DNA of 64,000 nucleotides from a virus (IMGVR_UViG_3300048011_000525:32001-96000); one strand, 5' to 3'; shown: positions 37,404-58,603, counted from the first letter of the stretch. Notes: generated from the letters alone by a model not told the origin. Numbers and translations: made by a program.

Positions 37404-38039
37404 TTATTTAAAGGGTGTTGGCGGCAAAGGTACTGCTCGCATAGCCTTATAAACTAACGTAGCACGTAGTCCTTTATAGTTTTCATTAGGCGGAAGACCA
37501 TGATGAGGAATATTTCCTTTAAACAAAAATATTCTTCCAGGTTTAGGGTAAACTTTTTCCCATTTGCCATTAAGTTTAATAACTGTTTCGCCGGCCCACT
37601 CTTCTTTCCATTCTCGGTTTACGTAATAAATCCAACTAATACCGTTGTCGCACTGACAATCAGTATGTTCAATAGTATTGTGTATCCACTGTTGTCCATT
37701 AACAAGTATTTCACCAACTTCAAGTTCAAATGGTATTAGTTGTGCAACGGCATTGTACACCATGTTCCATGCACTATCATGTGCATTAGGACTATTAGGA
37801 GGATAAATTTGTTGCTTAAATGCAGGAACTTCTGGCCAGTTTGGATCTGCTCCTATATCGTACTTAGGGTCTTCGGGATAGTTGCTAGTATGGCCATAAG
37901 TCCAGCTATACGACTTAAATACTAAGTCATGTATATGCTCTATCATCCAGTTAGGAAAAAGATCATCAATAACAATCATTTGATCTTTTGCTAAATCATA
38001 ATCGTATAAGTTGTCTTTTATTTCGCCGTTTACAATCAT
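37404..38039 (-). CDS. 2OG-Fe(II) oxygenase
   Basis: VNGQ, HTD, YVNREW, GET, PKPGR, PHHG, RATLVYK. Confidence 0.85.
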   Translation of the reverse strand: MIVNGEIKDNLYDYDLAKDQMIVIDDLFPNWMIEHIHDLVFKSYSWTYGHTSNYPEDPKYDIGADPNWPEVPAFKQQIYPPNSPNAHDSAWNMVYNAVAQLIPFELEVGEILVNGQQWIHNTIEHTDCQCDNGISWIYYVNREWKEEWAGETVIKLNGKWEKVYPKPGRIFLFKGNIPHHGLPPNENYKGLRATLVYKAMRAVPLPPTPFK

Positions 38040-39856
38040 GTATTTTCAACTTTCAATATCTTTTTGTGCTCTGGCAAATATACATACTCAATGTCGCTAT
38101 TTGCAAGAGTGCGCAATGCATCGTCTAGTGTTTCAACTAATGGCTCACCGCCTAAGTTAAAACTAGTATTAAAAATAATCGGAACGCCTGTCTGATTATA
38201 GAACTCGTTAATTACTGCATAATAATTTTCATTTTGTTCTTCTTTAACTGTCTGAATACGACAAGTACCGTCTACATGGATAATACTAGGAATCTTTTCA
38301 GCAACACCTTCTTGACAATTCATAGCATACATCATGTGTGGGGATTCTTCTAATCCTCGCATATCAAACCATTCGTGTGCGTGTTCTGCGAGAATTGATC
38401 CTGCAAACGGACGGAAGTATTCTCTACGTTTTACCTGGTTAACAAAGTCTTTTCCGTCTTCCATTGTTGGGTCAAACATCAAACTTCTGTTACCTAATGC
38501 TCTAGGACCTGCTTCCGATCTTCCTTGAAACATTGCAACAATGTTTCGGTCTCGAATTAATGATACAACATCTTTATGATCTGCTTCACTAATAGTTGCA
38601 TTATACTTTTTAGCAACTTCATTAATATCGTCAGTTGTATATTCTTTTGGCGGACCTAAATATAAACTTTCTCCAAATGGTTTAGTTTCGCTATCTCTTG
38701 ACGATTGATGCCAGGCGAGCATTGCTGCTCCAAGTGCTGTGCCTGCATCGGAACTAATAGGTTCTACATATAAATTAATTCCATACTTATTAAGCTCGTC
38801 GAGATAATGATAGTTTGCTACACAGTTAAGCCCGTATCCGCCTGACAAAACAATATTCTTTTTGCCAGTCATTTCGTGTGCTTTTAAAATTAATTTTAAA
38901 ATTTGCGCTTGACTTTCTTGCTGCAACGCATATGCTAAGTCTCTTCTGTTTTCTAATTTAGTTACATCATTGAGAGATCCGTCTTCATTATGGTATTCAG
39001 CAGGGGTATACAAATACTCATAAAACCCTTCGTTAATTATAGAACTGTTTGGATATGTAGGTATTACTAAATGCCTATTGGCTACAGTCCAATCGCCGCC
39101 TGCTTCAACATACAATGGTGGAATTTTATCATTAGGTTTACCGTATGGTGAAAGTCCCATTGTTTTACCAGCTTCAATTGCCTGAAAGCCGCAATAGTTA
39201 GTTACTGCTTCGTACACTTTGGTTATGCCTGCTCCGTCGTCAATAACACACTCGTGTGTACCGTATTCGTCAAATCTATCACTAGGCATGTCTTTAGTAT
39301 ATGACGATCTAAATGGACCGTTACCTCCAAGATGTTTCCACAATGTTTTTATATCAAATGGATAGTCACAATCAAATATTGTTTCTAGTTCAAATAACAT
39401 TTCTGTTTTTCCTGGTTCTATTTCAGCAGGAATAAATGTGCCGGCTCCGTCTACAATAACTGCGGCTGCTGAATCAAATCCCGAACGATAAAACGCACAC
39501 GCTGCATGTAGTTTGTGATGTACATGTGCTAAGTCAACTACCTGAGGGTGATTATAAATATCAATTTTAGGGCTATTATCAATTAATCCAAGTTTCCGTG
39601 CAAGGCCAGTATACACATCGTCGCCAGTAAAGTCAACACGTCCGGCTGTTTCAGCAAGTGGTTGCGTATGTGCAATAACAAGATAATCTAATTTATCAGT
39701 GTATTCTAAAATCTTAACCATTCCTGCAAAAGGGCCACCGTCGTATTTTTGACGACTTAGTCTTTCTTCTTCAACTGAAAATACAATTTCGCCGTCCTTA
39801 AGAAGACATACTGCACCGTTATGTCCTCGTGTTATTGCTGCTATCCATTTAGCCAT
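38036..39856 (-). CDS. O-carbamoyltransferase (NodU/CmcH/TobZ family)
   Basis: GHNGA, EEERLSRQK, HHKLHA, IVDGAG, GKTMGLSPYG, SGGYGLNCVAN, EAGPRALGNRS, FRPFA, NTSFN. Confidence 0.93.
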   Translation of the reverse strand: MAKWIAAITRGHNGAVCLLKDGEIVFSVEEERLSRQKYDGGPFAGMVKILEYTDKLDYLVIAHTQPLAETAGRVDFTGDDVYTGLARKLGLIDNSPKIDIYNHPQVVDLAHVHHKLHAACAFYRSGFDSAAAVIVDGAGTFIPAEIEPGKTEMLFELETIFDCDYPFDIKTLWKHLGGNGPFRSSYTKDMPSDRFDEYGTHECVIDDGAGITKVYEAVTNYCGFQAIEAGKTMGLSPYGKPNDKIPPLYVEAGGDWTVANRHLVIPTYPNSSIINEGFYEYLYTPAEYHNEDGSLNDVTKLENRRDLAYALQQESQAQILKLILKAHEMTGKKNIVLSGGYGLNCVANYHYLDELNKYGINLYVEPISSDAGTALGAAMLAWHQSSRDSETKPFGESLYLGPPKEYTTDDINEVAKKYNATISEADHKDVVSLIRDRNIVAMFQGRSEAGPRALGNRSLMFDPTMEDGKDFVNQVKRREYFRPFAGSILAEHAHEWFDMRGLEESPHMMYAMNCQEGVAEKIPSIIHVDGTCRIQTVKEEQNENYYAVINEFYNQTGVPIIFNTSFNLGGEPLVETLDDALRTLANSDIEYVYLPEHKKILKVENT

Positions 39857-41024: not shown

Positions 41025-41738
41025 TTACATTACAATTATATCACCAGTTAGCGGATCTTCTTCACTTGCAGGATCAATTGGTTCCATATTATAAGCAATC
41101 CAAGCTGGTATACCTGCGTCTTGCATTGTAGCGGGCCAATCTCTTAAACGCTGTCTATAATCTAACCATTTAGCTTTTAGGTCAGTAGGCATATCGTCAA
41201 CTACTTCGCTATCACTGTTGGATAGTAACTGCATTCGTTTAGCTCGTACATCATCCCAATCCGGAAGTCTGTCTCCTGACCCCATAACTGCCCAAGGTAT
41301 TGTCCTTGCTTGTACTGTTATGTTGTCATCTTCGTCTACATGTATTGAGTCGGGTTCGTATACGTCAAGTGGACGTAACGGTGTTTGATACGTAAATGTA
41401 TTGTGTCCTTCCATATCCATGCCGCCCGGAGGATGCGTGAAGCTAGTATAATCTTCGTCCATCTCGTCTAATATAGGACCTTTCAGTTCGCATATTAACG
41501 GATTAGATATACAATCTACTTCTACATATCTACAACCTTTCGGAACTGGTCTGCCATCTGCCTTTTCAAGCTCTGTTACAGGTCCTAAATGTTCTTTACC
41601 TGTATCGTTTTCGATAATCAAGTATAACTTATCCGGACCGTCGTATACGCAAGTTCTTGTATGACCATCAGTAAAACTGTGATCAACCATATATTCGTTA
41701 GGTAATTTCATTGTCCATTCAAATTCTACCATTGCCAT
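41025..41738 (-). CDS. Tail fibre assembly chaperone-like protein
   Basis: C-terminal WDDVRAKRMQLLSNSD...WLDYRQRLRDWP; exact TATAAATA at 41760-41767. Confidence 0.75.
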   Translation of the reverse strand: MAMVEFEWTMKLPNEYMVDHSFTDGHTRTCVYDGPDKLYLIIENDTGKEHLGPVTELEKADGRPVPKGCRYVEVDCISNPLICELKGPILDEMDEDYTSFTHPPGGMDMEGHNTFTYQTPLRPLDVYEPDSIHVDEDDNITVQARTIPWAVMGSGDRLPDWDDVRAKRMQLLSNSDSEVVDDMPTDLKAKWLDYRQRLRDWPATMQDAGIPAWIAYNMEPIDPASEEDPLTGDIIVM

Positions 41739-41771: not shown

Positions 41772-42584
41772 TTAAAAAAATGTTACTTTAACAACGCCAC
41801 CGCCGCCGGTGCCACCTTGCCCGCAACAACGTCCACAATAGTTCGATGTTGCACTTTGTCCTCCTGCGCCGTAAGGAACAATCCAACAGCCGCATCTAAT
41901 CCAACAATAGTTGGAGTTTTGTTCGTACCAGTTGTCACTTAAATTTGGTGCACCTGTTGAGTGGCCGTTGTGTTTCCAACAGTGACATGCGTTACCTGGA
42001 TAAAAGTATCCAGACTGTGCTTGGAAGTTACCACCGTGTGTATAACTTGCCCAATCACCGCTTGCGCTTGTTCCTACGCAGCCTGGACGCACACAGTAAG
42101 GCATAGATGAATAACACATGTCTGTCCACGAGCTATTAGTACACCCTCTTTGTCCGCCACATGCACAAAGGTTACTTAAATTATATCCATTAACATAAGT
42201 AGTACACCCGTTACAGCCATTACACTCACGACTTAGGCATCTGTATACACCAGCTGCACATACACTGTATGTACATCCTGAATTAGTAGTTACACTTTTT
42301 GAAGTATATGCACCGCCGCCTGCTGGGCCAGTATGTTGGCATCGTTGACAACTACATGCACCTGCACCATTGCCACCTGCGCCCCATAGTTCCCAATTTA
42401 AACGTCTAGTACAGCTAGGTACAGTCCAGTTACAACAACAACCTGAACTACATCTACAACTAATTCCGTAAAACCATTTAACACAAAAGTTGTCTCTTAC
42501 ACCGCCTGTCAAATTATTATAATCAACAACACTATCAGTTAACTGATCTGAGCGCACTTTTTTGTAATCTGTATAATTTGCCAT
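41772..42584 (-). CDS. Cys/Gly-rich fibre-tip-like protein, paralogue 3 (30 Cys)
   Basis: WTVP...ELWGAGG.G...GGGAY...GQGGTGGGGVVKVT glycine-rich scaffold. Confidence 0.75.
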   Translation of the reverse strand: MANYTDYKKVRSDQLTDSVVDYNNLTGGVRDNFCVKWFYGISCRCSSGCCCNWTVPSCTRRLNWELWGAGGNGAGACSCQRCQHTGPAGGGAYTSKSVTTNSGCTYSVCAAGVYRCLSRECNGCNGCTTYVNGYNLSNLCACGGQRGCTNSSWTDMCYSSMPYCVRPGCVGTSASGDWASYTHGGNFQAQSGYFYPGNACHCWKHNGHSTGAPNLSDNWYEQNSNYCWIRCGCWIVPYGAGGQSATSNYCGRCCGQGGTGGGGVVKVTFF

Positions 42585-42593
42585 CTTTAATCC

Positions 42594-43376
42594 TTAAATA
42601 TATGTCACTCGTACAAGTCCGCCGCCGCCAGTGCCGCTTTGTCCGCAACAATTATTACCACAGAATGTGTTCATTGCACTTTGTCCACCACTGCCATATG
42701 GCACACTCCAGCATCCGCATTTAATCCAACACTGTCTAAGTCCTTGTGTTGATCCGCCAGCTATTCTAAATCCCTGACCTTGATGTATTTCTTGTGGGTG
42801 ACAGTGACAGTATCCTGAAGCAGTGGAGAAACCTTGTGTTGTTCCTCCGATAGCAAAGTCACTACCTGTTGTAGTTGGCGCAAGGCAATAATAGTTTGTG
42901 CCAAAACAACCTGTTGACCAAGATGTATTTGCTTCTGCTCTATGGCCTCCACAAGCACAAAAATCACTTAGGTTGTATCCGTTTACATAACTAGAGCATC
43001 CATAACACCCTACACATTCACGATTTAAACATCTGTATACTCCAGCTGCACATACAGTGTATGTACACCCGGGATTAGTTGCAACCGTCTTTTGTGCAAA
43101 GGCGCCGCCTGATGCAGCTCTAAAATGGTGACATCTCTGATTACTACATGCACCACTTCCGTTGCCTCCTGCTCCCCACAATTCCCAAGTAAGTCTTTTT
43201 ACTTGGCTAGGTACAGTCCAGTTACAACAACAACCTGCACTACATCTACACGGAACACCATAAAACCACTTAACACCAAAGTTGTTTAGTGTATTTGGAT
43301 TAATCATATTATCATCTAACCCACCGTCGGGTAATTGCGATCCGTTTACTTTTTTATAACTTGAATACGTTGCCAT
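42594..43376 (-). CDS. Cys/Gly-rich fibre-tip-like protein, paralogue 2 (25 Cys)
   Basis: Same scaffold as its neighbours. Confidence 0.75.
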   Translation of the reverse strand: MATYSSYKKVNGSQLPDGGLDDNMINPNTLNNFGVKWFYGVPCRCSAGCCCNWTVPSQVKRLTWELWGAGGNGSGACSNQRCHHFRAASGGAFAQKTVATNPGCTYTVCAAGVYRCLNRECVGCYGCSSYVNGYNLSDFCACGGHRAEANTSWSTGCFGTNYYCLAPTTTGSDFAIGGTTQGFSTASGYCHCHPQEIHQGQGFRIAGGSTQGLRQCWIKCGCWSVPYGSGGQSAMNTFCGNNCCGQSGTGGGGLVRVTYI

Positions 43377-43386
43377 TTAATGTTCC

Positions 43387-44163
43387 CTATGCAAAAGTTA
43401 TCTTTACTACGCCTGGGCCACCAGTGCCGCCTTGTCCACAACAACGTCCGCAATATGATGTCATTGCGCCCTGACCGCCATGACCTGGAGGTGCAATCCA
43501 ACAACCGCAACGTATCCAACAAACGTTGTTGGCCATAGCTACGTTGCCGCCTAAGAAAGGAGCTGCTGTTGGTCTAACATATTGATGGTGACAGTGACAG
43601 TTAAAAATTCCACTAAAGTGGCCAGCGTGGCTGCTCATTCCGAAATCTCCGTTGTTAGCAGTTGGGCCTAAACAACAAGACCAACAACTAAAACAATATT
43701 GTGTCCAGTCAGTATTGGCTCTGCCGCATCCGCCTCCAACTGCGCAGAAATCTGAAAGATTATATCCGTTTACATATGTCGAACATCCTGTGCATCCGAT
43801 ACACTCGCGACTTAGGCATCTGTATACACCAGCTGCACACATTGTGTATGTACAGCCAGGGTTAGTTGAAATCATTTTAGAATTATATGCACCGCCGCCT
43901 GCGCCTTGATAGTGATGACATCTGTTACATGAACATGCACCACTTCCGTTGCCTCCTGCTCCCCATAGTTCAAAAAACACTCGTCTAGTACATCCAGGTA
44001 CAGTCCAGTTACAACAACATCCTGCACTACATCTACAAGCATTGCCAATTAGCCATTTAGTACATAAACGGTGTCGAGTATCAGTACCGAATTTATTTTC
44101 AGTAACTGTTCCATCGATAATTTGCGGATTGTAAATTTTCTTATAACTTGAATATGTTGCCAT
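43387..44163 (-). CDS. Cys/Gly-rich fibre-tip-like protein, paralogue 1 (30 Cys)
   Basis: Same scaffold; GAGGA SD. Confidence 0.75.
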   Translation of the reverse strand: MATYSSYKKIYNPQIIDGTVTENKFGTDTRHRLCTKWLIGNACRCSAGCCCNWTVPGCTRRVFFELWGAGGNGSGACSCNRCHHYQGAGGGAYNSKMISTNPGCTYTMCAAGVYRCLSRECIGCTGCSTYVNGYNLSDFCAVGGGCGRANTDWTQYCFSCWSCCLGPTANNGDFGMSSHAGHFSGIFNCHCHHQYVRPTAAPFLGGNVAMANNVCWIRCGCWIAPPGHGGQGAMTSYCGRCCGQGGTGGPGVVKITFA

Positions 44164-46537: not shown

Positions 46538-49500
46538 TTATCTGCTTAAGAAGTAGCCTAGTGCTACTGGTGCACCATCAACACCACCTGTGAAGTTCAT
46601 CTTCGCTTTAATATTTAGCTGTCCTCCGCTGGTTGTTGTAATTTCATCGCCTGCAATGAATACTGTACCAGCAGTAAGTGTGTTAACATTCAAGCTAGAC
46701 TGACCGCCACCAATCTGTGCTGTAATATAGCTTCTAATTGCACGTTGTGTTGGTACAATGTTATCACTATTTTCAGTAAAGAATGGATCTGTACTGAACT
46801 GTGTAATAATCGCTGAGCCAATACCTAGTCCAAGACCGTTAATTTGTAGTGACTGTAGTCCTGCTAAGTTAAATGCATCAGCATCTAGTGTCGCTGTACC
46901 AGTCGACTGTTGAACACCAAACAATCCGCCAACATTAAAGTTACCATCTTGGTCAGTACTTGTGTAGAACACTCGTCCTCCACCACTACTTAATTGTTGT
47001 GCTTCAATGTATGCTGACGTAATATCAACAAACGGATAGTTAGTTTTTGCTTTATTACCAGTACCAATATACAAGAAGTCATGTCCTGTTAGACGTACTT
47101 GCGAGTACTTGTTAGTAGTTGTAATTACTGTACCGTCTTTTGGTGCATTTAGTACATCTAGTCCTGGACTAATTTGGAATGTTGCTGTGTAGCTACCTTC
47201 TTGTCCAATAACATTACTAATTGTAACTAGTTTGTAATATTTTTCAGGAATATTTGCAAACTCAACATTTGATCCAGGTTCTGGCAGTTCAAACAAGTTA
47301 CGCACAGCAATAAATGTACTTGGTTGATACAAGTCTGCACTACCGTCGCCGCCTAGTTCTGATGTTGCACTAGTATATCCTGAACCTCTGTTAGTAAACG
47401 TTGGTTGTCCTAGAACACCGTTTCTAATTCTTGGATTAATGTTAGCATCAACTGTTGAACTTGGGTCAGTAATAGTAACTAGCGGTCCTGCTTGGAATGT
47501 TGAACCTACCATGTCTTGCGTTACAATAGATTCAATATTGTAGCTTGGGCCGCCGCTTAATAAACTTACTTCAATAGTACTACCAGTTACGTCTGATACA
47601 TAATATAGTATTTCACTGTTAAGTGCTGCTGTTTCTAAGTCTGCGCCCTCAAATGTGATCGGTTGTCCTACATACATATTATCTGTTGAATCTAATTCAA
47701 TAGTGTGTGGTGATGTAAATGATACAATGTCACCAACTGGATATCCTGAACCCGGTTCTAACAATGTAGTAGCAATAAGTGTACCATCATCTGCATAACA
47801 TCTACCATGTGCTCTTGCACCAGTTTTAATTTTGTTAGCAGTTGTATTAGCATCACTTGTTAATGCAACCCAGGTCGGAACGTTATTTGGGTTACCAAAT
47901 ATTGGTGTTGACCAGCTTGCTGTTCCACTTAGGTCACCTTCGTTCCAAATTAAACCATCTGAACTAATTGCACAGCTAGAAGCACCGTCGCACACTGCTA
48001 CGAACAAGCCTTGTCCGTATGCTACTCTTGTCCAACCAGTTGCACTAATGTTGTTTAGTGTTGTACCTTCGCTGTACCAATTTGCGCCAAAGTCATAGCT
48101 GATTGCATATTCGCCGGCATCTGAAATTGCAACAAAGCGTCCGTTACCCCATGCAAGACTTGTCCAGTCTCCGATTGCACTTGGCATATTGCCGCCGGCT
48201 TCCCATAGAATACCGTTTGAACTAACTGCTGTGTAACCGTCTGTATTAATTGCAACAAACTTTCCTGCTCCGTAGCGCACCGCACTAAACGTTCCGCTTG
48301 CAGGTGTTGTCATTGTACGCGGTGTCCAATTAGACCCGTTTGTTGACGTTTGTGCTGCGTCTACGCCGCCGACACTACCTACTGTAACAAACGTTCCTGC
48401 ACCGTATGCAATTCCTACATAGTGTGATTGACTAAACACATCGCCTGCTGTCCAGTTAGTATTTGCTTCGTCAATTGTCGGTAAGTATGCATTTGTAGTT
48501 GATCCGTTTGCAACAGCTACCCATTTAGCTTCGGTGTCAACAATCTCAACAGTTGGTGTAGTTGTATATCCTTCACCAAACAACGGATTGTCATCAACAT
48601 CAACATCTAGTCTAATAGCTATTACACCTTCGTTTTCTAAATTTGCAATTACTTGTGCTTGTGTGCTTGCGCCGCCTCCTGAAATAGTTACAGTTGGCGT
48701 GTTTAGGTATCCACTACCGCGTGTTTCAACAATTACTTCTGTAAGTTTATCTGTTGCTGCTGCAACAGTTGGTGCTTGTGCATAACCAGCACCTGTACTT
48801 GTAATAATAATATTTTGAATAGCACCGTCTTTAACAGTTGCTACAGCAGTTGCACCGCCGCCACCTAGTGTTGATGTAAACACAATAGTTGGAGGCGTAG
48901 TATAACCAGTACCACCTGCAACTACATTTACTCTAGCAATCTGTGTAGGTCCTGGTAAACCAATACTGTTTAGTTCGCCTAGTTCTGCTTCTAGTACTGC
49001 GCCAGTACCTCCAAGTCCGCCAACTACTGCTCTTGCAGTTGCACCCTGGCCTCCGCCGTATGCAACATCGCTCCAGTTAGCACTTGCAGGTAATGCTCCA
49101 CCTGTTGTCCAATTTTCGCCATCTAGTGAGTAATTTGTAGATGCTCCTGCTCCTCCTTCGAGTGCAATGAATCTACCATCAGCAAATATACCTGGACCAA
49201 AGTCTATTGCATCAGCTGTGCTTACACTGCTTGAGGTAAATCCTGGCTTAGCATAAACAATTGCAGGTTCAACAGTATAACCAGTTGTTAAGTCTAGTGA
49301 AGCTTCGCTAGGTTTTCCTGGAATAATGTTATCAAAACCTGCTGCATATATTGTTGCACTAGTAGTGTCATTGGTTAATACTTCAGTTACACCGCCTACT
49401 TCTGTGCTTACAGTAAATTGACCTCCGCTTACAATATTATTTACATAGTAAACATCGCTTGGACTATCACCTCTGCTTAGACCACCTACGTCTTCACTAA

Positions 49501-52500
49501 AATATATTGGCATATCAACATAAAGTGTAGTAGTATCATCAACAGTAATTACGTTATTGATTGAACTAGTTGCTGTTACAAATAAGTTGTCAAAACTTGG
49601 TTTGTAAACAGTACAGTTCTTAGTACCGTTGTTAAAGTTCAATACTTTACCGTATTGCCCAACACCTGTACCTGCTGTAATTTGTACTCTCATGCCGTTG
49701 TATGCATCACCTAGTGCAAAGTCTGTTGCAGCTAATGTAATGTGTACTGGATCGCCGCCCTGAGCAACGTTCTGTGCAATAACAAAATCTTCGCCGCCAA
49801 CAGTTGTGCCGTCATCAACGTCAATAATACGTGCTTCAACAACTGCTTGATCACGGAATTCATCTCCAACTGTAGCTGCATTAAATCCTGATCCACTAAT
49901 TGCATATTGTACATTAGTGTAACCTGTACCAGCATTGCTGTATTCCATTGCAAGCACTTCTTCTTCACCGTCAGTTGATACACTATAAACTAGTGCGTTC
50001 TGTGATAAGTTATCTGCATCTGCAACAATTGGTTCTTCACCTAAGTCTGTACCTTCAGCAATAACACCAAATGTACCATATGAGCTGTTACCGTTTGTAG
50101 CACGAATACGTCCGCCAAAGTCTGCAATATATCCTGCATAGTTGTAGTAAGCAAACACAGATACAAGTTCTGTTAGTGAGTTATTACCGCTACACCAAAC
50201 ACCAATGCCATCACTTAAGATTTGTGTAAAGTCGTTACTAACAACAGATCTGTTTCCGCCGGCATGTAAAGAACCATCAATCTTATTACCAATACATCCT
50301 GTACCAAATGTTGATACGTTTTGTACATAACATGATTTATTAGTTACCCATGCTTCTGTATCCCATGGTCCAAATCCTGGATCAAGCGATACATATGCGC
50401 CGCCAGTTGGTCGTCTTGTACCAAACTCGTTCTTTTCGCTTAGGTTACCGCGTAGTCCGTTAAATGTCATATTACGTGCGCCAGTTGCGTTACGTACATA
50501 GAACATATCTGAGTATTCAGAACCTTCTACAGCATTAACATATAGTCTTGCTGCTCGTAGTGAGTGATAATTACCTGGATATTGTAAATCATATATCATA
50601 GCATCAATGTATGATGACATGTCACGCTTACATGCAGTTTCGTCAAAGTCGTAACTTGCAGTCATTGTTCCTGTGCCGCCTGTAAACGTATTAATACTTT
50701 CTCCGTCTACTTCGTCTGTAACTTCAATTTCAGTTGCAGAAACTACATTTGAAACATAGTAAGTAGTAGCAAGTTCAATGCCTCCAAACACTGTTCCAGT
50801 AAACACAATAGGATCGTTAAGTTGTAGATTGTGCGCACTTGTAAATGTAAGTGTTCCTGGAGATCCTCCTAGATCTGTAACAGTTCCTCCGTAGCTTGCT
50901 TTAATCCAAGCTGTTGCTTCTTCGCCCAAAAAGTCTTTGTTAACTTTTAGAGCATCAACTGCATTAATTGTTTCTCTATCATTAAAGTATGTTGTAGTAC
51001 CTTGGAATTCTGGAGTTACTTTATCACCGTTTTTAACTACATTAATAACAATATCCATCAAGTTATTAATACGTACTTTTGCTTTGGTGTTATCGTTACG
51101 TCCACCGTAAGCATTTGTAGTTCCTTCGCCTGTAACATATGTAGTAATATAGTTTTTAAGTTCTCTATATGCTTGTACAGTTACTAAACGCTGTTCTTTA
51201 ATCACTACATCAGCCTGTGTGCCTCTGTAATATGACAGTGCTGCTATAGTTGTTAGATAGTTAGTATCAAGTAACATATCTTTACCTACAGCATCAATAA
51301 TGAGTCCTACATCTCTTTCGCACTTAGCTTGATCGTAAACTAGTGTTGGGAATTTTTCACGTATATAATCTGTAACATCTTCAACTATTGCTGATTTAGA
51401 ACCCTGAATGTTTGTAAACTGTTGTTTTAAATTAGCAGTTACATTACTATAGTCAGGCCCTGGAATAAACTGCCATTCCTCTGTAAAGCTCCCTAATTCG
51501 GATTCAGGAAGTGTAAGTTCTGGTCCATTGAAGTACGCTGATACAGTAAATGTATTAACTGCTGGGACACTCTTAATGTAATATGTTCCTGCACTAACAT
51601 CGCTAAATCCGTTTTCAAAATATAGTTCACTACCAACAGTTAGACCGTGGTTAACTGCTGTTGTTACTACATTTGATGAAATTTCTATAACTTCAATACG
51701 TTTTCTAAATGCACCATCACCTAATGAATTATAAAACAGTGTCATTAGATCTTCAACTCTAGTAACAGTTCCTGAATCGCCAATTAGTTGCGATTCATCT
51801 CTAAGGGTAGGTTCAACTTTTGTCTGTAATGCACCCGGACTAGACACACTATTTACTGCTAGACCCATTGCAATAAACTTGATATAGTCAAATGCTGCTA
51901 ATGTTGCTTCTAATTCGTTATCGCCAAGTTGAATATTGTTAGTTGCATCGTAGTAGTAATCTACTGCTCTGCGCATACCTGATTCGCCACCGAACGTTAA
52001 GTCATAACGCAATGCATCTATAACATATTTGATATCTCTACGACATTTAGCTTCATTATAATCTAGATCTGGATAAGTTTGTGCAATATATTCAACAGTT
52101 TCTTCTTGAATGTACGCTGTGTTTTCCCAGATAGTAGAAGCACCCACAATGTCGGGTGTATCTTCTAAGTTAGTGTCAACCCACTTTGGAGTAGGTAATG
52201 ATCCGCCGTCAATGTAGCTAGTAATATCAGTTATTAGTTGTTTAATAGCTTCATTTGGTGCAGTTAATGCAACACGTCTTACTTTCTCAGCTAAGAAGTT
52301 CATTGCGCCTACTGTTGCTGATTGTTCAAAACGTAAAGTTTTAAGTGCTGACGGAACAGCTCTGTAATATGCCATGCCTGCTTTAATTGTTGCAAAGTTA
52401 GAACCTGTAATAATATCACGTGCAAGTGCGTCAACAATTAATCCCGCATCTCTGCGACAAGTTGCTTGATTGTATTCTAAATCTTGATGATATTTTTCTA

Positions 52501-55500
52501 CCCAAAACACAACATCGTCTACAATTTCGTCTTTACGATCTTTAATTCTTTCATATGCTGTAGTAAGTTCTGTTAACTGCCATTCTGTTGCAACTTCTGT
52601 CTGTGTTTCAAAAGTTGAGTTGTTTAGCCAATATGTAATATCATCTACACGTTCTTGTGCAAATTCAATTGATGCTGCATTACCTACTGTACCGCTAGTA
52701 TCTTGTGTTTCGGTAACACCTGGGCTAGTTGTAACACTAGTTTCAGCAACAATTTCGCCAATGATTTCACGCAGTCTTGCATAAGATGCAAGTGTTGCTT
52801 GTAATTCGTTGTTTTGAATTGTTAGTACAAAGTTTGAGAAGTAAGCTGCTCCTGCAACGTTGGTTTGCGTATTACCACCGTAAGTTAAATCGTAACGGAT
52901 AGCATCAACAATAAACTGTGCGTCACGGATGCAACGTTCTTGTGCATTTGGCGATAATCCTCCCCAAATATCGTCGTATCCGTTTGCTGGATCAACTAAC
53001 CACTGTTGTAGTTCGTCTGCAATAAAGTCTCTATTAGCTAACAATTGATCTGCTGCATTGCCGTAAGTACTACTATCACCAGTAGTATTAGTAGTTGTAG
53101 CATACGCTGTATCAATTAATGCATCAGTATTGTATCCTGTTGGCGTTGGTAGTTTAATTGGAGGTACACTGTTTAGACCGTTTTGTATAACAGTTGTCAT
53201 ATCCTTAACAAGTTTAAATGCTTCATTTGCAGCATTTGCTTGTCCAATTGTTGTATCAACACCGATTGTTAATTCAGTTAGCGATTCGTTAATATAATCA
53301 ATAGTGTCAACTGTTGCGCCTAACTGGTTTGCTAGTACTAATTCAGTTGAAGTAATGCCTCTTTGATATGACTTGCCTGCTGTAATACTACGGAAGTTGC
53401 TATCAAAAATTACATCGTATGCAATAGCATCAATCATGTATCCTACATCACGAGCACACTTAGTTTCGTCGTAATCTAATGCTGGATGCACTTTGTTAAT
53501 ATAATCAATTGCTCCAGCTTGGATCAGTGATCTACGTGCATCTACTACAGCTTTAAACTCTTGTAAGCCAGTATCTACCCAAGCAATACTTGGATTAATT
53601 ATAGCTGGCAACACTCCAGTATCGACTGTATCTTTAATTTCTGTAAGACGATCAACTGCAAATGCTGCTGCACCTGCTGAGCCAACAGTTCCAGCTGTAT
53701 CTTGCGATGTAATATTGCCTGCACTTGGTGTAATACTTACACCAGTTGCAATATCGTCAATTATTGTTGCAAGGTGTGTTGCTAAATCAACTCTTGCAGT
53801 TTTTTGATTTGATGGATGAACTAGCACACCGTCTACATAGTTAGCTCTTGCAATAACAACAGACTCTATGTTTCCTCGATATGTTAGATCATAACGTAAT
53901 GCATCAACTAATTCATCTATTCCGTCAAGCCACGTGTTTTGTTCATCTAAAGTCAGTGCTGTCCATACTGCGTTGTGATTAGTATTTAGGTATGCTGCTG
54001 CTTCGTCTAATATAAACTGTTTGTTAGCAACAACAAGTCTTCTTGCGTTAAAGAACCCTGTATCATATCCAGTAGGATCAGTAATTGTATAAGATCCAGG
54101 AACATTATTGTTAACTACAATATCTTTAATTGTTGTACTATTAGAAACAAGTTTATCAGTGCCACTAGTAATATCTCTAATCTCTCTTCTCAAGTGATCA
54201 ACAGCACCTAGTGTTGCTTCTAGTTGTTCGTCAATAACAACTTCGGCGGAACTTATAGCTCTACGATATGCCATTCCTGATTTTGTACCATTAAATTTAG
54301 AATCAAACAGCATGTCGTAAACTAGTCCGTCAATAATGTATCCAGTATCTCTAGAACATTTAGTATGATTGTATACAAATCCAGTATAGTTATTTGTAAT
54401 GTATTGTAATAAATCTGGAACAACTGTTGTGTCGTCTAAAGTTGCCTCAGCATCGGTTTGAATTGCAGCAGTTACCCATGTAATAACCGGATATACTGTT
54501 GTTGGTAATGCAATTGTGTCGCCTGCATTAACAACATCTGAAATAATCTGTACTAATGTTGCAACTTCTGCTTCTTCAGTTGCTCCAGACATATAAGTTG
54601 CTGCAATTACTGCGATTTGCTCAATAGCAGCAGCAGTTCTTTCACGCTGTGCTCCTGGTAGTACTTCAATATAGCCATTAAAGTATGCTTTAGCTGCTTC
54701 AACGCTTGCGCTGTTACCACCGTACTGTACGTCATAAGATACAGCATCAATAATGTAACCAGTGTCTCTTTCACACAATGTTTGATCATATGTAAAGTTA
54801 GGGTAATTAGTATTAATCCAAGTAATTACATCTGTAATAATTGTTGCTCGATTAGTTTGAAGTTCTGTACGAGCAGTAGTTTTATCTACATCGCCTGATC
54901 CGCCGCTCCAAGTAATTGCATTAGGTGTATTGTTCTCAACAATGTCAAGTACTTCGTCCCAATAAGTATTGCTTCTAGTAATAGCAGTAGGATCGCTCAT
55001 CAATGCAGCAACTAATGATTTCTGTTCAGTAATTGCACCAAGTGTTTCCGTAATCTGTTCTTCAAGAACTTTTTCGCCTGCATAACTTCTTCTATAAGCC
55101 AATCCGTTACGAATAGAGTTATAGTTTGTTTCTAATGCAACGTCATACGCTGCGCCAGTTTGTAAAATTCCTGCATCTCTACGACAGCTAGAACTGTTAT
55201 AAACGAATTTACCATAGTTTGTATTAATAAAATCAATTACAGAATTTTGTAAAGTTGTTTTTTCAGTAGTAATGTCGTCAGTAATTGAAACTAATGAAGT
55301 TGATACCCAACTAGTATCTGGAGTAATTGGTGTAGGTAACGTACCATCAGTATCAATTGTATCAAAAATTTCTTGAATACGATCGTCAGCAAAAGTTTCT
55401 GCTGCTGCACTACCAGGTGATCCAGCAGTATCTTGTGCTTCACCATTGCCGGAAGTTGGTGTAATTGCTGTTTCAGTAATTACATCGCCTATAATTGATT

Positions 55501-58500
55501 TTAGATGTGTATATGTTGCAAGTGTTTCTTCTTTCTTGCCTGTACCGTATACTGGATTACCGTCTACAAAATAACTTCTAGCTGCAACAGTAGTTTGGAA
55601 GTTGCCGCCGTAAGTTAAATCATAACGTAGCGCATTTAAGATGTAACGTGTATCTCTTTCACAGTTTGCAGTATCAAATGTAAAGTCTGCTGCAAACGGT
55701 GCAATTACACCATCAACTTGTGCTTGAATCCATGCAGTTTGTTCTGCAACAATAAAGTCAATGTTTGCTTCAATTTGTGCAATAGCATTTGCAAAGCCGC
55801 TGTCGCTTGCATTATTTGATCCACTTGTTGGTGTTACACCAACATCTGGAACTAACGCAACATCTTCAATGCCATTTTCTAAGATATCAAGAGTTTTAAC
55901 AATTGACATATCTAAACGCTGTGTTGATTCAGTTGCTCCGCCATATCCATTTAAATATCTTTGTGAAGCTGTATTACCGCTAGTAGCATCAATAGTAATG
56001 TTTTGAATTACTTGCTCTGATACGTCTTTAATTCTGTTCAGTGCGCTTGTAGTTTTATCTTTGTCGTTAGCAAGTAGTGGAATTGCAGGTTGCGGTTGAA
56101 TAACTGATGTACGCAATTCGTCACCAACAATAGCAGTATATTCTGGAATAATAATTGGAAGTATTTCGTTATATGTACCAGTTTTAATGAATATTGTTGT
56201 GTTTGGTAATTGCGGAAGTGCAATAGCCGTATTTGATTCTGCTTCTAATCCAACAGTTACAATATCAATTAATGTACCTGCTTTTGCCTTACCGCTATCT
56301 TCTGCAACCAAGGTTAAATCAATAAATTGTGCTGCACGTTCTTCAATTGCAATTCCCATTAGCGACTGATAGCTAACTGGTTTTTCGTTGTTTAATACTT
56401 TTGCTACTAACGATTTTAACTGCTCGTATGCTTCGATAGTTTGTGTACGCTGATATCCAAACACATCGGTGATGTATTCATTCCCAGCTTCTGTATAGTA
56501 TGACTTAGCAGCTTCAGTAGTTCTTAGTGTGCCGCCGCGGCCAATATCGTAGTACAATGCATCAATAATGTAGCCGGTGTCTCTTTCGCATTTTGCTGAA
56601 TTATAAGAAAGTTTACCAGTCATAACGCCAGTTGCATCAGTTGGGATAAAGGAAATTCCGCCTTGTGTTTCTGAAATTCTAAATGTAGTTGAGCTTATAA
56701 TACTATCAACATAATAAGTTTGTCCTTCTACTACACCTCCAAATATGTCTACGCCGTCAAATTCAATTGGCATTCCGTCTTTTAAATTACTAGTGTCGTA
56801 AGTAGTAAACAAGCGCGATGCAGCCACTGTTTCGGTTACTATAACAGAATAAGTATAGTCTAACCAAGAAGTAATTTCTTTCTTAAAGAACTGTTTGTTG
56901 TTTTGTAAAATTTGTTTTGTTTGAGGATTTAAGTAGCCGTCACGTACTTGCTCTAGTGCATAACGTACACTTCTCCAAGGTTTGTCAATAGATAGACCTG
57001 AACGTGGAGCTGGCTCGTTTTCGCCTAGTGGTCCTACATAAACAACGTTATCAACTAGACCATAGTTTGCCCAGTCTGGCTTACCATCTGTAGCACGTAA
57101 AATCTGACCGTCAACGCCGATTGGAAGTCTAGTTGGTCCTTGATTTCCGTAATACACCATGTCGCCTTCAGTAGTAAGAGCAAGTGCTTCACTACCAAGT
57201 GTTAATAGGTTCCAGTAATCTGCTTCTAAATCGTTATCTGGACGATTTGCATTTTCTGATGTATGGGTTGCTGTAGCAATAAACGAACTTGCACCGTAAA
57301 TAACAACATCGCCAACAACATAATCTGTAGCTGGTGTCCAAGTAGATGAATAACCTACATGTGAAACTGTATCAACTGCTCCTCCTGTTACACCTGTTAC
57401 TGTTACAACAATGTCGTTAGCAGGAGTAGTACCGCCTACACTGTTACCGGCAACTAAAATAGTATCATCTTCTGCATATCCAGTACCAGCAAATCCAGTT
57501 GAAACATTTACTGTGTATACTGTTTTAGATTTAGTAACGTCAAATCGTACTCCAGAACCAGATCCTTCTACATTAGTACCTTGTACTTGTAGGAAGGTTT
57601 GTGTACTGTTAGTCCAGTTAATTCCTGAGTTTAGTTTACTCCAGTAAATATCATTTGGTGGAGTAACGTCTGTACTATCAGCAACAGACACATAAGTTGT
57701 TCCGCCTAAGCGAACAACATCACCTACTTTATATGAGTCTAATGAGCTCCAGTCTCCTTGAAAGCTAAAGCCAGTTGTAAATACTTCCCAGTCATTTGGG
57801 CTGGCAGTTGGTTGTGCAGCAGTGTTATTAGTTTTAGCAACATAAACATAACCACCGTATGTTACAGTGTCGCCAATTTGATAAACTGTTGAACTATTCC
57901 AGCTGTCTTCAAACTGGAAGCCTTCAATAAATACGTCCCAGTTTGTTTCGTCAGTTAAGAAATCATCTGAAGTGTGCGGAGCAACACAAATGAATACGTT
58001 GCCGCCAAATTTAACAACATCGTTAACTTTGTAACGTGTAGCAGTTTGCCATTCACCTAAGTAAACAAGTCCGTCACTAAATAGTTCCCAGTTACCTTGG
58101 TTTGCTTCTAGGCCAAGTGTTGCTGTAGCAGCAGAAATGTGTGCAGTGGTACATAGATATACAAAGCCGCCGTAGCGTACTAGGTCGTTAATTTTAAAAC
58201 GTGTATCAGTTGTCCAATCACCTTTCCAATCAAACGATGTAGCAAACGGAGTCCAATTATCAAGATTTTCTTCTAAACCTAAAAAGTCAGGTGCTTCAAA
58301 TGTAGCCGACGTGTGTCCTGTTTCAGCAATATACACTAATGAACCGTATTTAACAACGTCACCTGGTGCGTATTCTACTTCGGGCTCCCAAAGTCCTCTC
58401 CATTTAGTACCATCTGAAACTACTTCCCATTTTGGAATTTCATTACTAAAATCAGTATTAAATGCTTCTGATGATGTATGGTTTTTAATACAAATATATG

Positions 58501-58603
58501 ATTTACCACCAAAGCTCACTACATCATCTGCAACATATGTTGCGGCTGATGACCATTCGCCCTGCCATACAAACCTAATTCGTCCTAGTTTAAACTCTGC
58601 CAT
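46538..58603 (-). CDS. Giant (4021 aa) virion structural/fibre protein: 7 CBM-like N-terminal repeats, split beta-helix, 12 CxRD helical repeats, propeller-like repeats, shared C-terminal domain
   Basis: Uninterrupted 12-kb ORF; TAAATA at 58631-58636 and GGAG SD; repeats read directly from the translation. Confidence 0.85.
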   Translation of the reverse strand: MAEFKLGRIRFVWQGEWSSAATYVADDVVSFGGKSYICIKNHTSSEAFNTDFSNEIPKWEVVSDGTKWRGLWEPEVEYAPGDVVKYGSLVYIAETGHTSATFEAPDFLGLEENLDNWTPFATSFDWKGDWTTDTRFKINDLVRYGGFVYLCTTAHISAATATLGLEANQGNWELFSDGLVYLGEWQTATRYKVNDVVKFGGNVFICVAPHTSDDFLTDETNWDVFIEGFQFEDSWNSSTVYQIGDTVTYGGYVYVAKTNNTAAQPTASPNDWEVFTTGFSFQGDWSSLDSYKVGDVVRLGGTTYVSVADSTDVTPPNDIYWSKLNSGINWTNSTQTFLQVQGTNVEGSGSGVRFDVTKSKTVYTVNVSTGFAGTGYAEDDTILVAGNSVGGTTPANDIVVTVTGVTGGAVDTVSHVGYSSTWTPATDYVVGDVVIYGASSFIATATHTSENANRPDNDLEADYWNLLTLGSEALALTTEGDMVYYGNQGPTRLPIGVDGQILRATDGKPDWANYGLVDNVVYVGPLGENEPAPRSGLSIDKPWRSVRYALEQVRDGYLNPQTKQILQNNKQFFKKEITSWLDYTYSVIVTETVAASRLFTTYDTSNLKDGMPIEFDGVDIFGGVVEGQTYYVDSIISSTTFRISETQGGISFIPTDATGVMTGKLSYNSAKCERDTGYIIDALYYDIGRGGTLRTTEAAKSYYTEAGNEYITDVFGYQRTQTIEAYEQLKSLVAKVLNNEKPVSYQSLMGIAIEERAAQFIDLTLVAEDSGKAKAGTLIDIVTVGLEAESNTAIALPQLPNTTIFIKTGTYNEILPIIIPEYTAIVGDELRTSVIQPQPAIPLLANDKDKTTSALNRIKDVSEQVIQNITIDATSGNTASQRYLNGYGGATESTQRLDMSIVKTLDILENGIEDVALVPDVGVTPTSGSNNASDSGFANAIAQIEANIDFIVAEQTAWIQAQVDGVIAPFAADFTFDTANCERDTRYILNALRYDLTYGGNFQTTVAARSYFVDGNPVYGTGKKEETLATYTHLKSIIGDVITETAITPTSGNGEAQDTAGSPGSAAAETFADDRIQEIFDTIDTDGTLPTPITPDTSWVSTSLVSITDDITTEKTTLQNSVIDFINTNYGKFVYNSSSCRRDAGILQTGAAYDVALETNYNSIRNGLAYRRSYAGEKVLEEQITETLGAITEQKSLVAALMSDPTAITRSNTYWDEVLDIVENNTPNAITWSGGSGDVDKTTARTELQTNRATIITDVITWINTNYPNFTYDQTLCERDTGYIIDAVSYDVQYGGNSASVEAAKAYFNGYIEVLPGAQRERTAAAIEQIAVIAATYMSGATEEAEVATLVQIISDVVNAGDTIALPTTVYPVITWVTAAIQTDAEATLDDTTVVPDLLQYITNNYTGFVYNHTKCSRDTGYIIDGLVYDMLFDSKFNGTKSGMAYRRAISSAEVVIDEQLEATLGAVDHLRREIRDITSGTDKLVSNSTTIKDIVVNNNVPGSYTITDPTGYDTGFFNARRLVVANKQFILDEAAAYLNTNHNAVWTALTLDEQNTWLDGIDELVDALRYDLTYRGNIESVVIARANYVDGVLVHPSNQKTARVDLATHLATIIDDIATGVSITPSAGNITSQDTAGTVGSAGAAAFAVDRLTEIKDTVDTGVLPAIINPSIAWVDTGLQEFKAVVDARRSLIQAGAIDYINKVHPALDYDETKCARDVGYMIDAIAYDVIFDSNFRSITAGKSYQRGITSTELVLANQLGATVDTIDYINESLTELTIGVDTTIGQANAANEAFKLVKDMTTVIQNGLNSVPPIKLPTPTGYNTDALIDTAYATTTNTTGDSSTYGNAADQLLANRDFIADELQQWLVDPANGYDDIWGGLSPNAQERCIRDAQFIVDAIRYDLTYGGNTQTNVAGAAYFSNFVLTIQNNELQATLASYARLREIIGEIVAETSVTTSPGVTETQDTSGTVGNAASIEFAQERVDDITYWLNNSTFETQTEVATEWQLTELTTAYERIKDRKDEIVDDVVFWVEKYHQDLEYNQATCRRDAGLIVDALARDIITGSNFATIKAGMAYYRAVPSALKTLRFEQSATVGAMNFLAEKVRRVALTAPNEAIKQLITDITSYIDGGSLPTPKWVDTNLEDTPDIVGASTIWENTAYIQEETVEYIAQTYPDLDYNEAKCRRDIKYVIDALRYDLTFGGESGMRRAVDYYYDATNNIQLGDNELEATLAAFDYIKFIAMGLAVNSVSSPGALQTKVEPTLRDESQLIGDSGTVTRVEDLMTLFYNSLGDGAFRKRIEVIEISSNVVTTAVNHGLTVGSELYFENGFSDVSAGTYYIKSVPAVNTFTVSAYFNGPELTLPESELGSFTEEWQFIPGPDYSNVTANLKQQFTNIQGSKSAIVEDVTDYIREKFPTLVYDQAKCERDVGLIIDAVGKDMLLDTNYLTTIAALSYYRGTQADVVIKEQRLVTVQAYRELKNYITTYVTGEGTTNAYGGRNDNTKAKVRINNLMDIVINVVKNGDKVTPEFQGTTTYFNDRETINAVDALKVNKDFLGEEATAWIKASYGGTVTDLGGSPGTLTFTSAHNLQLNDPIVFTGTVFGGIELATTYYVSNVVSATEIEVTDEVDGESINTFTGGTGTMTASYDFDETACKRDMSSYIDAMIYDLQYPGNYHSLRAARLYVNAVEGSEYSDMFYVRNATGARNMTFNGLRGNLSEKNEFGTRRPTGGAYVSLDPGFGPWDTEAWVTNKSCYVQNVSTFGTGCIGNKIDGSLHAGGNRSVVSNDFTQILSDGIGVWCSGNNSLTELVSVFAYYNYAGYIADFGGRIRATNGNSSYGTFGVIAEGTDLGEEPIVADADNLSQNALVYSVSTDGEEEVLAMEYSNAGTGYTNVQYAISGSGFNAATVGDEFRDQAVVEARIIDVDDGTTVGGEDFVIAQNVAQGGDPVHITLAATDFALGDAYNGMRVQITAGTGVGQYGKVLNFNNGTKNCTVYKPSFDNLFVTATSSINNVITVDDTTTLYVDMPIYFSEDVGGLSRGDSPSDVYYVNNIVSGGQFTVSTEVGGVTEVLTNDTTSATIYAAGFDNIIPGKPSEASLDLTTGYTVEPAIVYAKPGFTSSSVSTADAIDFGPGIFADGRFIALEGGAGASTNYSLDGENWTTGGALPASANWSDVAYGGGQGATARAVVGGLGGTGAVLEAELGELNSIGLPGPTQIARVNVVAGGTGYTTPPTIVFTSTLGGGGATAVATVKDGAIQNIIITSTGAGYAQAPTVAAATDKLTEVIVETRGSGYLNTPTVTISGGGASTQAQVIANLENEGVIAIRLDVDVDDNPLFGEGYTTTPTVEIVDTEAKWVAVANGSTTNAYLPTIDEANTNWTAGDVFSQSHYVGIAYGAGTFVTVGSVGGVDAAQTSTNGSNWTPRTMTTPASGTFSAVRYGAGKFVAINTDGYTAVSSNGILWEAGGNMPSAIGDWTSLAWGNGRFVAISDAGEYAISYDFGANWYSEGTTLNNISATGWTRVAYGQGLFVAVCDGASSCAISSDGLIWNEGDLSGTASWSTPIFGNPNNVPTWVALTSDANTTANKIKTGARAHGRCYADDGTLIATTLLEPGSGYPVGDIVSFTSPHTIELDSTDNMYVGQPITFEGADLETAALNSEILYYVSDVTGSTIEVSLLSGGPSYNIESIVTQDMVGSTFQAGPLVTITDPSSTVDANINPRIRNGVLGQPTFTNRGSGYTSATSELGGDGSADLYQPSTFIAVRNLFELPEPGSNVEFANIPEKYYKLVTISNVIGQEGSYTATFQISPGLDVLNAPKDGTVITTTNKYSQVRLTGHDFLYIGTGNKAKTNYPFVDITSAYIEAQQLSSGGGRVFYTSTDQDGNFNVGGLFGVQQSTGTATLDADAFNLAGLQSLQINGLGLGIGSAIITQFSTDPFFTENSDNIVPTQRAIRSYITAQIGGGQSSLNVNTLTAGTVFIAGDEITTTSGGQLNIKAKMNFTGGVDGAPVALGYFLSR
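50540..56900 (-). repeat. Protein-level array of 12 helical C-x-R-D repeats (approximate bounds)
   Basis: Cys codons at about 56589, 55662, 55185, 54774, 54357, 53457, 52932, 52458, 52044, 51321 and 50631, plus a Cys-less copy near 53930. Confidence 0.85.
57200..58570 (-). repeat. Seven W-x5-Y-x3-DVV-x2-GG-x2-Y repeats (CBM5/12-like)
   Basis: For example WSSAATYVADDVVSFGGKSY and WQTATRYKVNDVVKFGGNVF. Confidence 0.75.

Follow-up and report, generated by a model that had tools for sequence, protein, structure and literature searches.

Phycobiliproteins consist of a seven-helix globin core with an added X-Y hairpin, and it is this hairpin that marks the alpha-beta protomer (PMC4553884). Their chromophore motif, C-X-R-D, is also found in bilin-binding globins called BBAGs (PMC10151467), and representatives of the BBAGs and photoglobins bind bilin in the absence of a lyase (Rockwell et al. 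2023, PMC10151467). Here we describe a long array of domains that carry the same motif in a predicted phage fibre protein. The window analysed is the 64,000-nucleotide stretch IMGVR_UViG_3300048011_000525:32001-96000, part of a 115,582-bp IMG/VR record with a CheckV completeness of 33%. On its minus strand, at 46538-58603, lies a single open reading frame of 4021 amino acids (aa), P0001, which is predicted to be a virion protein of tail-fibre type and has 12 copies of a helical C-x-R-D domain of 137-160 aa. The account that we favour, with a confidence only a little better than even, is that P0001 bears an array of phycobiliprotein-fold domains of two alternating subtypes, A and B, which are gained and lost as two-domain cassettes and form a rod with heterotypic junctions. 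The fold, the motif alignment, the two subtypes, and the alternation with its conservation are direct results of the present analysis.

The copies are numbered R01 to R12 from the N-terminus of P0001. Each was scored by the residue that follows the conserved Y/F-x, which is G in type A and S or T in type B, and the order obtained is A A B A B A B A B A B A, with strict alternation from copy 2 to copy 12. Ten of the 11 neighbour pairs are of unlike type (p = 0.005 on shuffling the 12 labels), and a hidden Markov model (HMM) built from the 12 segments recovers exactly 12 copies, at 94-167 bits each. C-x-R-D itself is present in 11 of the 12 copies; copy 6 has T-W-L-D-G instead, at aa 1558 (window position 53932). 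This order agrees with a first-pass annotation of the stretch, which had claimed a strict alternation of two types with repeats 2-11 as five A/B alternations; the type A and type B motifs that it quoted are all found in the translation of 46538-58603 (minus strand), and T-W-L-D-G lies where it had placed an A copy without Cys, near 53930. The identical order is found in 20 of 121 homologous proteins, the commonest variant among the 121 being one in which repeat 10 is scored B and the rest is the same, and the shorter arrays of orthologues alternate likewise, down to about 35% identity.

All 12 copies lie on the minus strand, and the motif Cys is given here with each as residue and window position. 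R01, a terminal A-like copy with C-E-R-D and R-G-G-T (56195-56725, aa 627-803; Cys at aa 672, 56590), scores 146.7 bits with the HMM. It is followed by R02, a type A repeat with an insert in the loop between helices G and H (G-H loop) and the motif Y-D-L-T-Y-G-G-N (55322-55798, aa 936-1094; Cys at aa 981, 55663), and by the type B repeat R03 (54911-55321, aa 1095-1231; Cys at aa 1140, 55186). R04 is of type A by its motif, Y-G-G-N, and is short, with no insert (54494-54910, aa 1232-1370; Cys at aa 1277, 54775); R05 is a type B repeat with seven helices in its AlphaFold2 model (54068-54493, aa 1371-1512; Cys at aa 1416, 54358). R06, of type A by motif and with the insert, reads Y-R-G-N and has lost both the Cys and the Arg of C-x-R-D (53594-54067, aa 1513-1670). 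The second half of the array consists of R07, type B with a long linker after it (53069-53593, aa 1671-1845; Cys at aa 1716, 53458), R08, type A with the insert (52595-53068, aa 1846-2003; Cys at aa 1891, 52933), R09, type B (52181-52594, aa 2004-2141; Cys at aa 2049, 52459), R10, type A with F-G-G-E and a beta-rich insert of about 80 aa after it (51692-52180, aa 2142-2304; Cys at aa 2187, 52045), R11, type B by motif (50990-51457, aa 2383-2538; Cys at aa 2428, 51322), and R12, a truncated A-like copy that keeps the N-terminal part only and is recognised by the type A HMM (50450-50767, aa 2613-2718; Cys at aa 2658, 50632). Types were assigned from motif, HMM and tree in R02, R03 and R07 to R11, and from motif and tree in R04.

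The four consecutive repeats R02-R05 (aa 936-1512, 577 aa, from an alignment of 53 rows) were modelled by AlphaFold2 with a mean predicted local distance difference test score (pLDDT) of 87.7 and a predicted template modelling score (pTM) of 0.82. When the type A repeat R04 (model residues 302-424) was compared with allophycocyanin and phycocyanin in a VIA search, Z scores of 15-16.7 were obtained at root-mean-square deviations (rmsd) of 1.9-2.3 Å over 120-122 residues, the best match having Z 16.7 and 2.0 Å over 120 residues. The best 50 rows of that search are all phycobiliproteins or proteins engineered from them, and R04 pairs with the phycobiliprotein from about residue 32 through the C-terminus. 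The type B repeat R05, modelled alone (pLDDT 86.3, pTM 0.81) and searched without bias against 48,161 representative chains, with no Foldseek step, matches allophycocyanin at Z 14.1 (2.9 Å over 121 residues); further matches are the bilin domain of ApcE (Z 12.7), phycoerythrin (11.9) and a photocobilin (11.4), with sensor globins and RsbR lower, at Z 8-10.6, and haemoglobins at 6-7. Foldseek, run with the 577-aa model against the PDB, returned phycobiliproteins with probability 1.00 and TM scores of 0.5-0.64, at E values of just 0.08-0.3. The well-fitting alignments (rmsd about 2-3 Å) begin at phycobiliprotein residues 27-45 and leave the X-Y hairpin region uncovered; each repeat pairs with the phycobiliprotein from about residues 27-34 up to the C-terminus, and in the models only two helices precede helix E in each repeat. 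Longer VIA alignments that used the preceding domain as a stand-in for X-Y had rmsd values of 5.4-6.8 Å and were dropped as not meaningful. As modelled, the repeat has the phycobiliprotein fold reduced to its globin core, the N-terminal X-Y hairpin being absent.

Sequence comparison leads to the same family. A profile of the 12 repeats, run against all PDB sequences, gives 14 matches (E < 10), all of them phycocyanin alpha chains, the best at E 0.0033. In this alignment the K-C-x-R-D-x-G-Y of the repeat falls on K-C-A-R-D-I-G-Y of CpcA, that is, on Cys84, and the N-Y-P that closes the helix before it falls on F-P-Y of a helix that we read as helix B. The Pfam family PF00502 is matched above its gathering score (22.2 bits) in three homologues, at 26, 27.3 and 38.2 bits over profile positions 72-155; one of the three is an orthologue of 58% identity, in which the match (26 bits) falls where R04 has its counterpart. 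Weak matches to PF00502 are also given by single repeats of related loci, in 2 of 65 cases for type A and 4 of 55 for type B. A phmmer search with aa 936-2467 against PDB sequences found nothing at E up to 1, and an ESM Atlas look-up of R04 gave no usable match. Since Pfam, the sequence profile and the models of both types agree, we regard the repeat as a relative of the phycobiliproteins.

The likeness to the antenna phycobiliproteins (CpcA/B, ApcA/B and CpeA/B; PF00502) thus extends over the core helices A, B, E, F', F, G and H, with C-x-R-D at the start of helix E, and both groups comprise two paralogous subtypes in equal numbers. The repeats differ from the antenna proteins in having no X-Y hairpin, in a sequence identity of just 12-20%, and in being fused in tandem, 12 here and up to 36 in homologues, inside a predicted virion protein of a jumbo phage, where a bilin is only putative. 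BBAG-1, BBAG-3 and the photoglobins are likewise phycobiliprotein paralogues outside the antenna, some of them with C-X-R-D, and the photocobilin globin is among the best structural matches of type B. Unlike the repeats, however, BBAGs and photoglobins are single-domain cellular proteins whose genes are clustered with those of haem oxygenase and bilin reductase.

The two subtypes were examined in 1916 repeats that the HMM found in 121 homologues, with up to 36 per protein. The columns that discriminate them lie in the F'/F region and in the G-H insert: column 65 is G in A and S/T in B, column 63 is Y in A and F/L in B, and type B has F/Y at column 67, R at 78 in 84%, V at 85 in 71% and Q at 89 in 89%. 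Type A shows Y-G-G-N after helix E, and type B shows F/L-x-S/T-N-F/Y followed by Y-x-R. The G-H loop insert is present in about 75% of A and about 25% of B repeats; in type A it measures about 20 aa, and in the R02 model it is a coil, yet with pLDDT 92-95. The models have seven helices in type B and six in type A, where a loop or short beta-hairpin replaces helix F.

The subtypes also separate in trees. In a FastTree phylogeny of 237 repeats from 13 architectures, with columns 61-67 removed, the A/B label changes 13 times, against 72.6 times when labels are shuffled, and 90 A repeats share one starred clade with a single B repeat. A local IQ-TREE analysis of the repeats of P0001 and two orthologues, with the motif columns removed, groups R01 with R12 (support 100/100), R02, R06, R08 and R10 as an A core (90/88), and R03, R05, R07 and R09 as a B core (97/96); when the motif columns are kept, type B forms one side of a branch with a support of 89 in the SH-like approximate likelihood-ratio test. 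The first-pass annotation had expected the repeats to fall into two clades, and this is borne out by the two cores, though not for R04 and R11 nor as one clean split (see below). A and B are thus real, old and family-wide subtypes, with two outliers in the array of P0001. Within the array, neighbouring copies are 19-35% identical in BLASTP local alignments and the closest copies of the same type 38-43%. R04, one of the outliers, has its nearest kin outside P0001, in another family of giant proteins: it is 58% identical to one repeat of P0079 and less close to every other repeat of its own protein, which suggests an exchange between paralogous fibre genes.

Given two types in a one-to-one ratio, it is tempting to equate them with the alpha and beta subunits, and the first-pass annotation read the duplicated unit as a heterodimer that echoes the alpha-beta protomer and that, in a trimeric fibre, could be stacked as (AB)3 discs. 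Two globin subtypes in strict 1:1 alternation and true kinship of the domains with phycobiliproteins speak for such a fused heterodimer, and these parts of the earlier reading stand, as does a change of array size by two domains at a time. The echo of the protomer does not. The X-Y hairpin, its mark (PMC4553884), is absent from every copy, and the two types match the same chains: the best chain for both is 8or7_A (Z 16.5 for type A, 14.1 for type B), and with type A the scores of alpha-type and beta-type chains lie no more than 1 Z unit apart, a tie. A type A profile run against the PDB matches both phycocyanin alpha and phycoerythrin beta (E 0.3-3), and a type B profile matches no phycobiliprotein there, only spurious helical proteins such as haemagglutinin HA2, at E 0.2 or worse.

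The family's own conserved residues bear on the same question. D55, D60, N66 and Y76 are common to A and B, at 79-100% in both types, and, judging by our own alignment to phycocyanin sequences, the antenna proteins carry other residues at these positions. The pattern suggests that A and B diverged from each other within the family, after it had split from the antenna proteins. The likeness of A and B to alpha and beta goes no further than that each pair consists of two paralogous globin types present 1:1; the types are not counterparts of the subunits, and the alpha/beta parallel is corrected here as unsupported.

Nor does the family as a whole keep to the alternation. Paralogous arrays of 14-36 repeats often have AA and BB neighbours, which counts further against a fused heterodimer. 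Alternation is still enriched in proteins of 33-36 repeats, where 22-24 of 32-35 junctions are of unlike types (p 0.004-0.04); in proteins of 14-22 repeats it is absent, and runs such as B-B-A-A-B-B occur. Alternation is strict in the orthologue group of P0001.

Within that group, arrays have 8, 10 or 12 copies, which correspond to R01, then three, four or five pairs, then R12, and the pair is probably, though on weak evidence, the duplication unit. Its register was sought in 78 proteins from the similarity of neighbours. The median Spearman r is 0.50 for B-then-A and 0.04 for A-then-B, and the A-then-B correlation is the higher one in just 17 of the 78; this weakly favours a B-then-A cassette over the A-B pairs of the first-pass annotation, and so, if there is a cassette at all, speaks against an A-B heterodimer too. 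We propose that unequal crossing-over between same-type copies has enlarged the array, and still reduces it, one two-domain cassette at a time. Such copies, the sole recombination partners, lie two apart, which explains the steps of two; by the same argument, recombination of like with like would both generate the alternation and maintain it.

In the model of R02-R05, all three linkers have pLDDT values of 85-95, equally confident at both junction types. This argues for a fixed geometry at A-to-B and B-to-A junctions alike rather than for A-B beads on a flexible string. Long inserts are equally frequent at the two junction types, 27% each, and so do not point to an A-B unit that is more tightly joined. 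Pair geometry does seem reproducible, which speaks for the fused heterodimer, since two adjacent domains can be superposed at 3.5 Å rmsd over 313 columns on the BFVD model of a protein from another phage; BFVD alignments that span all four domains have rmsd values of 20-30 Å. With the hairpin absent, no mapping of A and B onto alpha and beta, AA and BB neighbours frequent elsewhere, both junction types alike and a cassette register of B-then-A, we consider a fused equivalent of the alpha-beta protomer, stacked as (AB)3 discs, highly unlikely. The reading to which we commit is that the globin-fold domains of P0001 would make up a rigid shaft in which the junctions are heterotypic: the domains would stack end to end into a rigid rod, and A and B would not use the alpha-beta protomer interface.

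It may be asked whether the alternation has any role in assembly. It could simply be the trace of an ancestral two-domain duplication, kept since very similar neighbours tend to co-misfold. The low identity of neighbours relative to the closest same-type copies is as this explanation would have it, and arrays with other orders exist and are conserved. On the other hand, the subtype residues are kept family-wide, with type B R78, Q89 and V85 at the frequencies given above, and retention of the Cys/Arg/Asp triad differs between A and B, both of which argue for distinct roles of the two types. An alternation without any part in assembly is therefore, in our view, unlikely, and we retain the rod with heterotypic junctions.

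Several points nevertheless weigh against the account as a whole. PF00502 is not reached in Pfam by P0001 or by any of its 12 single repeats, and the repeats pass no other Pfam threshold either. In the local tree R04 and R11 are outliers that the tree does not place, and a single A/B split is recovered in just 48% of bootstrap trees when the motif columns are removed. The neighbour-similarity signal is weak, with 5 units per protein and 78 proteins that are related to one another. Alternation together with homologous recombination would give size steps of two in any case, so that these add no separate argument for a structural unit, and the evidence for a rigid rod consists of the pTM and pLDDT of the model.

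The ends of the array are unusual. Between R01 and R02, at 55835-56071 on the minus strand (aa about 845-923), the type A HMM finds a half copy made of the C-terminal third of a type A repeat (helices G-H); in all of the 35 orthologues this segment (aa 845-923 of P0001) aligns with positions 85-150 of the type A HMM, at up to 37.6 bits, against just 12-16 bits with the type B HMM. R12 of P0001 covers HMM positions 10-85 and then runs directly into a beta-rich segment that is uninterrupted in the paralogous protein P0002. The half copy and R12 are thus complementary at HMM position 85, bracket the ten alternating repeats and lie about 1770 aa apart; on either side of the array is a beta-rich segment, one at aa 806-842 and the other from aa 2713 on.

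Such an arrangement could mean that R02-R11 form a closed out-and-back excursion, a hairpin in which the ends of an apparently split type A domain rejoin in space and every A is next to a B from the opposite arm (R02 with R11, R03 with R10, and so on). Complementary end fragments, beta-rich segments that bracket the array, the later of them unbroken in P0002, and an internal copy number that is always even (6, 8 or 10) would all fit. However, R02-R05 by itself models as a confident unit, the R12 alignment of other orthologues can be extended to HMM position 150, and even copy numbers are likewise explained by recombination. We regard the hairpin as distinctly improbable and keep to the extended rod. 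Two further segments, aa 2541-2574 (about 50882-50983, minus strand) and aa 562-590 of orthologues, match the first two helices of the repeat only, at 11-14 bits. They lie just upstream of the small T-Y-Y-V beta domains found before R12 and, in orthologues, before R01, which suggests that the beta domains are inserted into, or adjoin, degraded repeats.

The positions conserved across the 1916 repeats are C46 95%, R48 92%, D49 98%, D55 84%, A56 84%, D60 99%, N66 82% and Y76 99%. The Cys of C-x-R-D is nearly the sole Cys of the repeat, with 0.14 others per repeat. Arg is lost in 65 of 85 repeats that lack the Cys and in 85 of 1831 that have it (odds ratio 67, uncorrected for relatedness), a coupled loss that is as expected if both residues serve one ligand site. 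Of the 32 orthologues that have 12 repeats, 32, 32, 32, 32 and 31 retain the triad at the five B positions; at A positions it is kept in 16 (R06), 27 (R12), 29 (R08 and R10) and 30 (R04). By these counts, constraint on the triad is stronger in type B, and type A positions lose it sporadically. What the analysis by subtype adds to the description of the array is that the types are old and structurally distinct, that the triad is more strongly constrained in type B, and that Cys and Arg are lost together.

Because the Cys is single and conserved, aligns with Cys84, and is lost together with the Arg, a retained bilin site is a serious possibility. Covalent binding of bilin by the repeats may be entertained on these grounds as possible rather than probable. 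A more far-reaching proposal would be a fibre with covalent bilins, with type B always loaded and type A loaded or empty, which would act as the light sensor for cyanomyovirus adsorption and be the client of CpeT and of the bilin genes of phages; this we think doubtful. If it were true, the alternation would give two spectrally or functionally distinct sites along the shaft, a pigmented fibre might explain the light-dependent adsorption of S-PM2 and P-HM2, and the CpeT lyase and bilin synthesis genes that phages encode would have the fibre as their true client. For the light-dependent adsorption of cyanophages, 'light-sensitive tail fibres' are among the causes that have been suggested (PMC6628666), and cyanophage bilin synthesis genes and CpeT have been reported almost only in myoviruses (PMC10452541). 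S-PM2 combines light-dependent adsorption, the same domain in a tail-fibre protein and a CpeT lyase (E 1.8e-40); no bilin reductase was found in its genome. In no paper that we could find are domains of the phycobiliprotein fold, their chromophore motif intact, described along a phage fibre.

Giant fibre and virion proteins of T4-like cyanophages (S-PM2 p091; PHROGs 4527, 5342 and 701) share the repeat domain, and the structural matches to cyanophage giant proteins in BFVD have values of 7.6e-9 to about 1e-4. The tail-fibre protein p091 of S-PM2 has at least 5 C-x-R-D copies. All 165 isolate records with a tblastn match, among 50,697 phage records, are cyanophages, and the matched proteins bear the annotation tail fibre, short tail fibre or virion structural protein; a megablast search of the repeat region against the same 50,697 records gave no match. 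Unlike that of P0001, the cyanophage arrays are shorter and less regular, and their A/B motif classes are blurred (E-G-N, E-S-N, G-G-N, D-G-N).

P0001 itself matches PHROG tail-fibre and virion structural families at E values from 4.7e-172 to 1e-26, among them PHROG 9851 (4.7e-172), 4527 (2.1e-82), 5342 (6.4e-67) and 701 (1.4e-43), and 332 homologues of it were found. Its N-terminal region (57584-58603, minus strand, aa about 1-340) has six CBM_5_12-like repeats (Pfam PF02839, 5.1e-33 over 6 stretches). The gene upstream on the same strand, from 58639 to past the window end, encodes the paralogue P0002 (open frame of 2620 aa), which has the beta-rich segment and the C-terminal region in common with P0001. 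The repeat HMM finds no copy in the portion of P0002 within the window; a thirteenth copy (57.6 bits) lies in the N-terminal part of this paralogue, 321-761 bases past the window end (G000:C1:96321-96761, minus strand).

The tail sheath of the phage (1055 aa, window 21079-24246, minus strand) is nearest, at 42-43% identity, to those of the jumbo phages PA5oct (Pseudomonas), Atu_ph07 (Agrobacterium) and Phosso (Sinorhizobium). We therefore read the source as an uncultured jumbo myovirus rather than a classical cyanomyovirus. The fibre repeat is found among isolates only in cyanophages and the tail sheath is nearest to these jumbo phages, so that the module and the tail core imply different relatives. 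In the 115-kb record, which covers about one third of the genome, no PF00502 protein, bilin reductase, psbA, haem oxygenase, CpeT or CpeS was found; PF01126 and PF05996 likewise have no match in these 115,582 bp, which, at about 33% completeness, does not imply their absence from the whole phage. On the minus strand at 41772-44163 are three tandem paralogues of 258-270 aa (PHROG 4205, 1e-46 to 1e-52), which have on one side a 666-aa protein whose C-terminus is tail-protein-like and on the other a 237-aa protein (41025-41738) with a weak match to tail-fibre assembly proteins. Also near the fibre genes, at 38036-39856 on the minus strand, a Nol-like carbamoyltransferase is encoded (PHROG 1601, 2.4e-167).

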